Under the pieces are notes generated by a model, which made no database searches, was not told where the DNA came from, and worked only from the letters and a program-made list of their open reading frames with translations. 64,000 nt of DNA from Paraspadella gotoi (taxonomy: Eukaryota > Animalia > Chaetognatha). The first letter of the stretch is position 1, and the number at the start of each line of letters is the position of its first letter. The stretch is from positions 7,544,683 to 7,608,682 of the forward strand of contig CM119267.1 in assembly GCA_051294375.1 (NCBI GenBank), written 5' to 3'. Shown piece by piece: positions 1 through 62,624 of this stretch. The position numbers and the translations under genes are program-made.

Positions 1-712
1 GAAAAGAAAACAATGATGTTAAGGTGACACTCCGCAAGCCAACGCTGAAAAAAAAAAACGTCATTAGCAAACCTTTGAAGATTTTTTTTCGTAGATAAAA
101 TTAAAGTCATTGTCCTACACATTTATATTATAACTTCATATTGATTGGTTATGATTTGACTTGGCAATGAGCGGAGAAAATTTGCCTTATTTTCATTTTC
201 AATTTGTCTAATTTTTATAACTTTTATATAAAAAGCTATCATTATTAATATCTTTTGAAAGCTCTTGGAAATTTGAAGAGAATGAGAGCTTAATTTAATT
301 TAATCAAAAAAAATCAAAAGGATGAAAGACGATTTTTAAAGCAACTTTTCTCTACTCATTGCCAAGTCAAATCATAAGCAATAAATACGAAATTAATATA
401 TATAAATAAATTTGGTTTTTACTACACAAAAAAATGTTTCAGATTTACAAACGACTTTTTTTATAGCGGCGGGTTGTGGCGAGTCACCTTGTACATAAAT
501 ACCAAAAAGAGAAAAAGAAGAGCAGATTCAGGAAAGCAAAAAGCAACAAACTTGACCCACCTGACGTTCTTGGGTCCCTTGGAGGCGTCGATCTTGACGA
601 TCTTGGCGTCGTAAAGAACGCCGACGTGATAGCAAAGGACGAGTTCATTAATGATGAATCTCGTGGGAAACGACGGCGGCTCCACTTCCTGATTCTTGGG
701 CTTCGCAGGCAT
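1..712 (-). CDS. MRG15/MSL3-like chromo-barrel protein, 5' part only; the gene runs off the window
   Basis: Exon 1 MPAKPK...RFIINELVLCYHVGVLYDAKIVKI matches the MRG chromo-barrel start (VLCFHGPLLYEAK). A GT donor follows near 560. Downstream exons are not resolved. Confidence 0.6.
128..398. mobile_element. MITE-like element with ~50-bp imperfect terminal inverted repeats
   Basis: TTATGATTTGACTTGGCAATGAG (149-171) is the exact reverse complement of CTCATTGCCAAGTCAAATCATAA (355-377). Imperfect pairing extends over 131-180 / 346-396. The interior is AT-rich and non-coding. Confidence 0.7.
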
Positions 713-891
713 CGTAAGGGAGGGCGAGGTTCTCGGCTAGGGGAATGAGGCTATATTTATCGTCCGTTTATGTCCAGTTTGTGGTTGTAGCGCATCGAAG
801 GAACTTAAAACTTGATCGTTAAAACTGTAAAATAAAAAATTTAATAAACAATTGTGAAAGGCTCAGAACGCCCATGCGAGCGCACTGTGGA

Positions 892-1639
892 TCAATTCTT
901 GATCTCCAGATAACGAGGCTGGGGTTTGGCCACTTTGCGGAACTGTTTCATCAAAGAAACGGGACACTGAACCTCGCACCACGAGTACGGAACCATGACA
1001 TGGCCGTCGGGGGAGTAAGCGACGACGACACCAAGTTCGTTTTCGGCCGTTGACAAGAGGTAAGCGTGAGCGTCGCCCAGAGACAAGACGCGGGCCACGA
1101 TCAGATCAGTCGGCTGGAAACATTTGTGGATCTCCACCTTGTCCTTCTCCGTGGCTCGAACATCCTCTTTCCGTACGAGGGCCCTGAAAGAGTCCGTTGC
1201 CGAAGCGCCGTCTACGCTAACGATCGAGCATTTGGCAAAGCGGGAGTTGATGGAAGTGACGCGAGCGATCACGATCGAGCCGACGAAAGGCACGACCGCT
1301 CGTTTTTCCCTGTTAAGAATGCAACTGAATTGGTTTCCTAATTTAAGGAAGCGATTTCTTGATTAAAAGAAACGGTTGGAAGCAAAACTGCACCCTCCAC
1401 ATCTTTCACCTCTCTACTGTTATCTCAAGAACGTGACTTCCGTTCCGCCTCGGGGTCGATCGATCCTCGGGGGCTTCCAGCCGCGGCTCAAGCCGTTTGA
1501 CGGCGAGTCGACCCCCCAAACTCGAGTAAATATAGCCTTGATGCTCATAACTTCCTTGTCCTGACGAATAGGGTTCAGTCGACCGACAAAGACGTTGTCC
1601 CGGCAACACGACCCTATTTACCAACAGATTGTCATTCAT
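892..1639 (-). CDS. EXOSC1: exosome complex component CSL4 (2 exons)
   Basis: VVLPGQRL..GQGSYEHQGYIYSSL N-terminus; S1 domain (PFVGSIVIARV, RKEDVRATEKDKVEIHKCFQPTDLIVARVLSLGD); zinc-ribbon end RKVAKP. Confidence 0.95.
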
Positions 1640-1711
1640 AGCGAGAAGCGGTTAACTTGAAACAAAACAAAAAATTGGTTTTATCACAGCAACATGGGAA
1701 CATCAGAAACG

Positions 1712-60200: not shown

Positions 60201-61344
60201 ATCTATAAACGTTTCCGTTTTCAATATTAATAATAATAATAATAATAATAATAATAATAATAATAATAATAATAATAATAATAATAATAATATGATTATT
60301 GATTGTTCATTTATTCGTTTCTATTTCAGGCCTTTTAGAGCACCGTTATTATTTGCCATTAAGCTGGTGTAAGAATGCGATGATCATTTGACCGGCCCTG
60401 CCGTCGCTTTGTGTGCCTCTCTCTCGTTACAGATCCACTCATTAAGGTTGCCTTCCGTGGTCGACCCGGCCGCTCGCACAGAACTCCTTTCGTGGCTGGC
60501 CCTGTGGGCAATCACCGATGCGCTGTCGCGCCGTGCAGCCTCACAAAAAAAAAAGACAAAAAAATCCTTACCCCCCGTGTCGATGTAGACACGCATAACG
60601 CTTCCCATCTTTTCCTGCTGGTCCAATTTTTCGGCACAATGACGGGCCGACCGTACGCTCGTAAAGATGGCCTGGCAAGCGAGAGAGAAAGTCTGGAGTA
60701 GACGACATCTTAAGTCCCTCTCTCGGTTCAAACGACGCAACCCAACTCACTTTCCCCAAACCGATGCTTTTCCCCGAGAGAGTGCTGTGGTAGATCTTGA
60801 CTTCGTCGAGGCTCCCGAATTTGGAGCACATCTTTCGCAGGAAAACGTCGTCGATGTTGTCGTTGAGATTGGAGAAAGTGAGCTCCCGCGGAGGAACGTG
60901 ACCGATGTAGTTGACATCAATCTACAAATAGGGCGAAAAAAGAAGTATTGGAGAAAAACTAATTCAATTTCAGAGTTTAATAATGAACCTTAAACTTTGG
61001 CAGCGGTAAATCCATAGACGACTTGTGCGCGAAATGCTTCTGAACACGAGACCGAGGGTCTCTCAGGACAGGGGGCGCCTCCATGGGGTCCGAAGGGAGA
61101 CCATCGTAGCGGTATATCTTAGAAAATCCTTTCCTAAATTTGGTTGAGACGTAAAATAAAGTTGAAAAAGTTTAACCCTAGACGAAAAAGGAAATAGTAG
61201 AACGTAGGATACGTCCTAGCGCTCTTACCCGCGCAATAGGGGATCCGTCATCAGTTTGTATGCCGCGAATTTTCTGGCGCGAGACAAATTTTGGCCGAGG
61301 GCGTGATGATCCGCCGTCAGTCCGTTGTGACCTTGATGCTCCAT
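54265..61344 (-). CDS. SETD1: histone H3K4 methyltransferase SETD1
   Basis: YKLMTDP, IYRYDG, DPR N-terminus; RRM ([11 protein letters not shown]); [19 protein letters not shown] motif [11 protein letters not shown] ([25 protein letters not shown]); post-[16 protein letters not shown]. Confidence 0.96.
60132..60545. mobile_element. copy B (longest) of the intronic repeat family; TG..CA termini and an internal (AAT)n microsatellite
   Basis: Shares about 200 bp with 45979-46180; (AAT)n at about 60229-60291; a GC-rich right arm ends CCTCACA. No clear target-site duplication. Confidence 0.65.
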
Positions 61345-61721
61345 GGTAATTATAGCAAACACAACGAAAAAGTTGATTTTTACGCGCGAAAAAAGTGCGT
61401 CCCTTTATTATTATTACTATTGACTAGTTATGTTGAGGATTTTTATCATAGTTTCAAAGCCGAACGCAAAAAAAAGCGATAAAATTTCATCATCGACGCG
61501 ACCCACTGAGATCCAGCGTCGGCTGATCGTCACCGAATTAATGAGTCAATCATCTGAATGCGGAAGGAAAATGAATATTATTTTTATTTTTGCGTTTTTT
61601 TTTTTTAAACAAATTTTTAAACAAATTTTCAAACATTTCCAGGGAAAACAACTACTGTAGAAATTCTTCGTTTTAATTCGTATGCACACTCGAAAAACAG
61701 AGGGTCTCAAAAATGACGATT

Positions 61722-62624
61722 CTAAGCGACGAGCGCCGACGCTGTGGACGATTCGTACTTCCACGTGGGCGGCAGAACGCGTTTGGTCTTGAAGTAACGC
61801 GCCAGGCGGTGGATTCGCGATTCGACCAGGATGAGGCGAAACTTTGCATCCCGGTCCTGACAATAAGACGGGAGTGGCACGGTGGGGCGCGAGGGCGACG
61901 GAGGGTGGTGGGGGGGGGAAGAAGGAAACGCGTGTTAGTATGGCCGTCTCTGGTCGTGAGCCATTCGACAGTGGCGAACTGGGAATCGTTAGCGTACACC
62001 GTCGTAACGCGACGCACCAGAGAGGCCTTAGCTTGCTCATGAAGAGATATGTATATATTATATCTACCTCGACCCCACCCGCGATCTTAATGTATCTTGC
62101 GTGGATAGAGTCGGGTCATTTAATAGAATTTTTTACGCCGGACTGATTATGTTATTAACTATCTCGTGCAAGTCCAAGAAAAAGCCTAACCCGCACCTTT
62201 CTATTCCGCTCGAGATGCTTCCTGATCGAGACGGCCTTTTTGATCATGTGATATAGATCTTCGGGGATTTCCGAGGCGAGACCCTTGGCCTTGAGGATGC
62301 GAAGAACCTTGGTGCCAGTGACGAACTTGACCTGGGCGACGCCGTGAGAGTCGCGAAGAATGACGCCTATCTGCGACGGCGTCAACCCCTTTTTGGCCAA
62401 CTTGAAGATCTGTTCCTTGACATCGTCCGAAGACAGCTTGAGCCAGTTGGGCACGGAGCGCCTAGTTGGAGATTGAAAACGGGAATGTTGTTGCGAGATT
62501 TCAGTTATTAGAAGAATTTTTAACAAGTTCTTTTTCACAAAACGTACACGTATATAAACCAGAATTACCTGTAAGGCAGAGCGCTCTGCGAAATACCTTT
62601 TCCGGGAGCGTGCATACGACCCAT
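61722..62624 (-). CDS. RPS13: 40S ribosomal protein S13 (uS15), 3 exons
   Basis: [70 protein letters not shown]. Confidence 0.98.
61934..62116 (-). ncRNA. candidate structured intronic RNA in RPS13 intron 2
   Basis: Hairpin 62066-62116 whose G-U pairs work only on the sense strand; branched stem 61942-62027; TACTAAC at 61940-61934. Confidence 0.4.

Follow-up and report, generated by a model that had tools for sequence, protein, structure and literature searches.

At least 23 unrelated genes on one strand of a Paraspadella gotoi locus, probably forming several tandem operons with spliced-leader processing

The stretch of DNA analyzed here (hereafter the window) comprises 64,000 nucleotides (nt) of contig CM119267.1 of the chaetognath Paraspadella gotoi. 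It carries an array of host genes, 23 of 23 on the minus strand across 62 kilobases (kb), which extends from RPS13, with its ATG at 62624, to an MRG/MSL3-like gene leaving the window at the low end (Table 1). Since the array is open at this end, the gene count is a lower bound. The functions of the genes are unrelated and largely housekeeping, and the genes are intact and single-copy within the window. Gene models were curated by coordinates; a simple gene finder had fused neighbours and produced antisense shadow models. The curated set consists of 22 complete, stop-free models and one partial model, with 114 introns in total (median about 80 nt). One internal junction of the GRHPR model is probably misplaced.

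For the strand test, every stop-to-stop open reading frame (ORF) of at least 60 amino acids (aa) in the six frames was scanned against Pfam at E<=0.001. Matches were obtained for 52 of the 255 minus-strand ORFs and for none of the 235 plus-strand ORFs. They are spread over 20 genes; the three genes beyond these are the MSL3/MRG-like chromodomain gene (a weak match, E 0.0016), a zinc-finger gene (also weak, E 0.004) and a single-exon ORF of 512 aa with 10 homologues. A leave-one-gene-out codon test, from which PIWI, GNPTAB, GRHPR and MRG were excluded, chose the minus sense frame in 19/19 genes. When a coding score was calculated for 426 segments of 150 nt, 71 appeared minus-coding and nine plus-coding. 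Three of these nine lay in an intronic inverted-repeat element, four over minus-strand exons and two in AT-rich spacer. Across the whole window, the Pfam ORF scan and the 150-nt codon segments revealed no host gene on the plus strand, either within introns or within gaps. The same-strand array is therefore confirmed as a real feature, as claimed in a preliminary description of this DNA.

The 22 stop-to-ATG gaps, listed from the RPS13 end, measure 377, 1502, 277, 1088, 1125, 198, 130, 254, 175, 332, 249, 391, 756, 85, 103, 168, 239, 421, 109, 124, 72 and 179 base pairs (bp). Their median is 244 bp, and 12 of them do not exceed 250 bp, with untranslated regions (UTRs) still included. Eight of the nine gap values given in the preliminary description were reproduced, the ninth (132) arising from the in-frame upstream ATG of the aldo-keto reductase gene at 15921. 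Its statement that just four gaps are longer than about 450 bp (1502, 1088, 1125 and 756) was also borne out, whereas mobile DNA, which it had placed in two of these four, was reduced to a repeat in one of them by self-comparison of the window. Cutting the array at 450 bp results in five blocks of 2, 2, 1, 8 and at least 10 genes, with gaps of 72-421 bp inside the blocks; a cut at 250 bp results in eleven blocks, the longest runs of which contain 5 and 5 genes. Gene density in the array is one gene per 2.7 kb, compared with 11.6 kb genome-wide. No promoter-like motifs shared among the four long gaps were found. An Rfam search of the window gave no match at the gathering score and three weak ones below it, and no spliced-leader (SL) RNA or small nucleolar RNA was found there.

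Transcription across one of the 22 junctions, that between the phospholipase D (PLD) and renalase-like genes, was analyzed with assembled contigs of the RNA run X1 on positions 9000-11900 (2.9 kb); these are contigs, not molecules. The contigs showed at least 99% identity to the window and represent spliced RNA; it is this splicing that identifies X1 as RNA, as none of the matching runs is recorded as such. Eight joints were present, all CT..AC on the plus strand, and 8/8 coincide with modelled introns. In addition, a loose end at 9033 resumes at 5903-5932, confirming the 3.1-kb renalase intron. One contig contains spliced PLD exons, the stop codon, the entire 421-bp spacer and 30 nt beyond the renalase acceptor. 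A second contig starts exactly at 10243, which is the first base after TTTTTCAG and lies 23 nt upstream of the renalase ATG. RNA crossing the renalase acceptor unspliced exists, and the assembly branches at that acceptor. At the other end of the array, X1 contains 0.74 of the sampled words from 52700-62650, where a share of 0.55 is expected for coding exons alone and 0.75 for exons plus spacers. Two further runs (X2 and X3) matched only 58 nt, a related PLD active-site stretch.

Acceptors without an upstream partner were then considered near the start codons. An AG of cis-splicing quality lies within 50 nt of the ATG in 15 of the 23 genes, compared with 9.6 expected in shuffles (p 0.014; p 0.002 for the median score), and the same threshold on the opposite strand was reached in 6/23. 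The acceptor 22 nt upstream of the RPS13 ATG is strong (score 9.5).

The contig starting at 10243 has a loose end of 14 letters, which, joined to the exon start, makes up a perfect palindrome of 30 nt and is thus a fold-back, not a leader. The centre of the palindrome is the first base of the exon, and the inner seven letters of the loose end read GTTTAAA in mRNA sense. The genome accounts for a palindrome arm of 1 at this position, whereas the leader SL2.0, which ends in GTTTAAA, accounts for an arm of 8; only 0.065% of random 36-mers from the window do as well. A leader end GTTTAAA is indirectly implied at 10243. The simplest reading is that the fold-back would be derived from cDNA of a leader-spliced mRNA folded at the palindrome, with GTTTAAA as its non-genomic end. 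Of the chaetognath leader forms in Table 3 of the Spadella study (PMC2481426), 25/26 end in GTTTAAA, and the same source lists Spadella EXOSC1 and an HMG-box gene as leader-bearing. The pair of 5' and 3' leader motifs was not found in the window. N-terminal extensions of the homologues gave no exact match to translated leaders; P0130 resembles SL2 in frame 0 at 4/8 residues.

Table 1. Genes and spacers of the array, ordered from the RPS13 end
Feature	Positions	Strand	Evidence
Upstream gene-free AT-rich stretch, candidate promoter/outron	62625..64000	-	no Pfam match or coding signal
RPS13, 3 exons, 151 aa	61722..62624	-	Pfam, model, homologues
SETD1-type H3K4 methyltransferase, 13 exons	54265..61344	-	Pfam N-SET/SET, model
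Long gap 1, 1502 bp, candidate unit boundary	52763..54264		repeat not found by self-comparison
RNASEH2C, 2 exons	52298..52762	-	Pfam, model
HMGB-type protein, 5 exons	50930..52020	-	Pfam, model
Long gap 2, 1088 bp, candidate unit boundary	49842..50929		gap length
PIWI-clade Argonaute, 20 exons, N-terminal 21-nt tandem repeat	43785..49841	-	Pfam PAZ/Piwi, model
Long gap 3, 1125 bp, candidate unit boundary	42660..43784		gap length
MALSU1 (RsfS family), opens 8-gene block; acceptor AG abuts ATG	40930..42659	-	Pfam, model
GNPTAB (Stealth family), 14 exons	36218..40731	-	Pfam, model
NBS1/nibrin, 2 exons	33537..36087	-	Pfam FHA, NIBRIN_BRCT_II
WDR70, 5 exons	30648..33282	-	Pfam, homologues, model
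Zinc-finger protein, 5 exons, mobile-element relic in last intron	25727..30472	-	weak Pfam, model, codon test
Ferrochelatase, 7 exons	23640..25394	-	Pfam, model
Lineage-restricted single-exon gene, 512 aa	21852..23390	-	10 homologues, codon test
HM13/signal peptide peptidase, 8 exons, closes 8-gene block	19563..21460	-	Pfam, model
Long gap 4, 756 bp, with 54-59 nt copy of mobile-element end at 19436-19493	18807..19562		self-comparison
GRHPR-like 2-hydroxyacid dehydrogenase, opens block of at least 10	17533..18806	-	Pfam, model
REX1BD (DNA repair REX1-B)	16858..17447	-	Pfam
SFT2/Got1 family	16054..16754	-	Pfam
Aldo-keto reductase (AKR), 5 exons, in-frame upstream ATG	14698..15885	-	Pfam, model
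Phospholipase D (PLD), 14 exons, last four introns spliced in RNA	10642..14458	-	Pfam, model, RNA
PLD-to-renalase spacer, 421 bp; candidate trans-splice acceptor AG 10245-10244, exon start 10243	10221..10641	-	RNA
Renalase-like flavoprotein, 8 exons, 3.1-kb intron with inverted-repeat element	5391..10220	-	Pfam NAD_binding_8, RNA joints
C2H2 zinc-finger protein, 2 exons	4279..5281	-	Pfam
OGFOD1, 8 exons	1712..4154	-	Pfam, model
EXOSC1/CSL4, 2 exons	892..1639	-	Pfam, homologues
MRG/MSL3-like chromodomain gene, first coding exon, gene leaves window	561..712	-	weak Pfam, E 0.0016

Several features of individual genes are worth describing. GC-AG introns were required for open frames in PIWI (47573), GNPTAB (39905) and HMGB (intron 3). 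The modelled N-terminus of PIWI (49268-49742) contains a 21-nt tandem repeat encoding the seven-residue unit RGADSSL in about 15 overlapping copies, which could be an Arg-Gly methylation tract. A possible two-exon minus-strand ORF of about 61 aa, with no Pfam match and a weak codon score, is present in the gap between PIWI and MALSU1 (42922-43325). The PLD protein has a PLD_C end and an N-terminal C2-like region, a domain layout that we take to resemble that of plant PLD-alpha. For the flavoprotein at 5391..10220 Pfam gives NAD_binding_8, and the name renalase-like is presumed. Two longer GC-rich introns, RPS13 intron 2 (61857-62196) and WDR70 intron 2 (31764-32096), showed neither coding signal nor Rfam match and are candidates for unannotated small RNAs.

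The 3.1-kb renalase intron contains a GC-rich element (6316-8810) with inverted repeats at 6431-6571/8614-8757 and 6380-6448/7786-7854, two histone-like stem-loops scoring below the Rfam threshold, and disrupted ORFs on the plus strand that have no Pfam match; the element is spliced out in RNA. The last intron of the zinc-finger gene at 25727..30472 harbors a mobile-element relic (26488-28124) with inverted ends and a plus-strand ORF (26875-27270), which we presume to resemble a Penelope-type GIY-YIG end; Pfam and Protein Data Bank searches gave no match. The end of this relic recurs as the copy in the HM13-GRHPR gap. Another element is common to introns of SETD1 (60129-60393) and PIWI (45975-46180), with 84 nt at 96% and 72 nt at 92% identity in the same orientation. 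It gave no Rfam match, and its folding was no better than that of shuffles.

The encoded proteins are of animal type. In a quick tree, EXOSC1 grouped with five proteins (support 97), apart from all 25 species-named rows, and a supported group with Ciona was not formed. The WDR70 core is 84-87% identical to JGI proteins compared with at most 66% to species-named ones, and RPS13 is 93-96% identical to proteins from JGI and from MERC, a catalogue of marine eukaryote metatranscriptomes. Two of the 10 homologues of the 512-aa single-exon gene are also from MERC. No protein of a species-named chaetognath appeared in any of the searches. The marine matches and the slow evolution of the proteins point to a chaetognath; basal nematodes and gastrotrichs, considered as alternatives, were rejected in view of the marine relatives and the chaetognath-type leader end. 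A metagenome scan for related gene order yielded 45 loci, none of the clade of the window (best segment identity at most 64% to the clade query).

How surprising is a run of this length? The value of 2e-7 given in the preliminary description is arithmetically correct. Its null, however, is wrong, as it assumes independent genes though the organism has operons; the value overstates the surprise because five tightly spaced blocks need four coin flips. The probability of co-orientation is 0.0625 for the five blocks of the 450-bp cut and 0.001 for the eleven blocks of the 250-bp cut. If junctions are independent, the published operon share of Paraspadella predicts 0.02-0.04 runs of 23 genes per genome. 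This estimate is weakened by a probable clustering of operons in dense regions, and the window was selected for being unusual.

A comparable run is found in the bacterial artificial chromosome (BAC) 35A21 of Spadella (158 kb), for which Table S5 of PMC2481426 gives 24 gene rows. Ten rows were dropped: one without orientation, one tyrosine recombinase and eight within or beneath transposon labels, which include all four minus-strand rows. All 14 host rows that remain are plus-strand and extend over 120 kb, although g15 and g16 may belong to a single gene. Six gaps longer than 1 kb, ranging up to 8-18 kb, divide them into seven blocks, with a co-orientation probability of 0.016. Across 525 animal genomes a same-strand run is reported to contain about 2 genes on average, as against about 30 in trypanosomatids (10.64898/2026.07.29.740908).

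Operons resolved by a spliced leader are already known in chaetognaths, both in Spadella cephaloptera (PMC2481426) and in Paraspadella gotoi (PMC12460157). For the latter, leaders on about half of the genes have been reported, with 18% of genes in operons and nine genes in the longest operon; under a rule of less than 250 bp between gene models, 3,565 of 22,072 genes were assigned to 1,470 operons (PMC12460157). As described in these sources, such operons resemble the present array in their co-oriented, unrelated housekeeping genes with a ribosomal-protein gene first, in their short gaps and unpaired acceptors, and in their germline and maintenance genes. The spacing of co-oriented genes used to define them is found at the 12 of 22 gaps of at most 250 bp, unpaired acceptors are found at 15/23 genes, and the GTTTAAA leader end is implied at one acceptor here. 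The array differs in scale from the published maximum of nine genes: its two longest blocks comprise 8 and at least 10, and they belong to a series of at least 23 genes without a strand switch. The coding DNA of the window has an observed/expected CpG ratio of 1.30, which fits the absence of gene-body methylation reported for Paraspadella (PMC12460157).

In the parts of PMC12460157 and PMC2481426 consulted, no strand-run analysis was found; the phrase "same strand" is missing from the main text of the former, and the 2008 Spadella paper merely remarks that other BAC genes share orientation (PMC2481426). Long strand runs in chaetognaths were not the subject of any paper listed by a literature search, the coverage of which left out most subscription journals, and the term "operon" was absent from the other chaetognath preprints searched. 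The mechanism is thus not new, and it is the scale that was not found in print in these sources.

Outside chaetognaths, two systems invite comparison. The operons of tunicates and nematodes (Ciona, Oikopleura and C. elegans) are likewise leader-resolved polycistrons of housekeeping genes. In Ciona they comprise up to 6-7 genes, which are spaced by about 1 bp, and a cut-off of 60 bp was applied in Oikopleura (PMC7986045), whereas the stop-to-ATG gaps within the blocks of the array measure 72-421 bp. Directional clusters of trypanosomatids share with the array tens of unrelated genes on one strand and leader trans-splicing, which is likely here. Trypanosomatids, however, have almost no cis-introns, while the 23 genes of the array contain 114, eight of which were seen spliced. 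A leader is expected there on every mRNA; a universal leader would be hypothetical for the array, where an AG is missing from the 50 nt before the modelled ATG in 2/23 genes. The array is therefore trypanosomatid-like in layout but not a member of that class, because it is intron-rich and promoter loss is hypothetical.

We consider it probable (about 0.6) that the array consists of a few tandem operons, corresponding to the blocks of 2, 2, 1, 8 and at least 10 genes, from which spliced-leader trans-splicing yields single mRNAs. From the observed strand uniformity, gap sizes, cis-splicing and RNA across one spacer we infer the leader, the unit boundaries and the promoters. Transcription by RNA polymerase II would begin ahead of RPS13, with further starts probably lying in some of the 0.75-1.5 kb gaps. 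The transcript of each unit would be cleaved where 3' end formation is linked with leader splicing at the following acceptor: the upstream mRNA would be polyadenylated near the unpaired acceptor of the next gene, and a leader of about 36 nt ending in GTTTAAA would be spliced onto this acceptor, bringing the cap. The spacer would then be mostly the 3' UTR of the upstream gene.

Several observations weigh against this reading. A strong acceptor close to the ATG is missing in eight of the 23 genes; SETD1 and PIWI, both of which follow gaps, lack any AG within 50 nt of the modelled ATG, and 37% of windows in spacer interiors pass the same acceptor threshold. An intact leader was not seen in the X1 contigs, and the fold-back represents one site in one run. 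The block boundaries are defined solely by gap length. The X1 word share could equally reflect long UTRs or retained introns, and, with one of the 22 junctions seen in RNA, a contig over two genes does not prove a single transcript.

The preliminary description had proposed one or a few very long polycistronic units of a kinetoplastid-like type. Polycistronic units are the best reading, as the RNA continuity at the PLD-renalase junction suggests, but the "very long, kinetoplastid-like" part is not established, because the four long gaps could hold promoters, SETD1 and PIWI have no near AG and the genes contain 114 cis-introns. In its extreme form this proposal takes the whole stretch of more than 62 kb as one or two units without internal promoters, like the directional clusters of trypanosomatids but made of chaetognath housekeeping genes. 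Such an arrangement would account for 23 genes without a strand switch, where 0.02-0.04 such runs are expected per genome, and the word share of X1 is also compatible with coverage of the 1.5-kb gap. The oriented host rows of BAC 35A21 point in the same direction, its only minus-strand rows being transposon rows, and if the break at gap 4, which carries the mobile-element end, is ignored, the last block grows to 18 genes. We nevertheless regard it as unlikely: the leader share, operon share and nine-gene maximum reported for Paraspadella speak against it, its trans-spliced genes retain open-chromatin regions, though fewer (PMC12460157), the missing acceptors of SETD1 and PIWI and the room for promoters in the four long gaps count here as well, the gaps of the Spadella BAC reach 8-18 kb, and the window was chosen as unusual.

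Conversely, each gene could have its own promoter, with leaders, if present, replacing short outrons, and with the RNA continuity caused by 3' UTRs that overlap the start of the next gene. The 10,197 trans-spliced genes of Paraspadella, against 3,565 in validated operons (PMC12460157), are in line with this idea, and continuity of contigs cannot tell overlap from read-through. It seems improbable, however, since gaps of 72-130 bp would need to accommodate the two flanking UTRs as well as a poly(A) site, and 22 successive co-orientations are left unexplained by separate promoters where the animal mean is about 2 genes per run. In the single operon described from Spadella, moreover, just 3 nt separate the poly(A) site from the following acceptor (PMC2481426). 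It is very improbable that the array is an assembly artefact, or that the DNA comes from outside the chaetognaths, with a coincidental match between fold-back and leader: an independent RNA run agrees with the assembly at the identity given above, is spliced as modelled and bridges one spacer, and the genes are intact and single-copy. A few tandem operons therefore remain the reading we prefer.

A bolder extension, which we put forward tentatively and regard as unlikely, is that chaetognaths independently evolved a trypanosome-like architecture, in which clusters of tens of housekeeping genes have very few promoters and use spliced leaders while keeping full cis-splicing. The published nine-gene maximum would then be a product of the 250-bp operon rule.

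Animal operons are thought to end below ten genes, and same-strand runs in animals contain about two on average. The run of at least 23 genes described here, together with the BAC run of 14, suggests that polycistronic transcription is far more advanced in one animal phylum than the literature indicates. If this is true, chaetognaths would provide an animal test case for the co-occurrence of promoter loss, leader splicing, loss of gene-body methylation and absence of topologically associating domains, all of which have been reported for Paraspadella.

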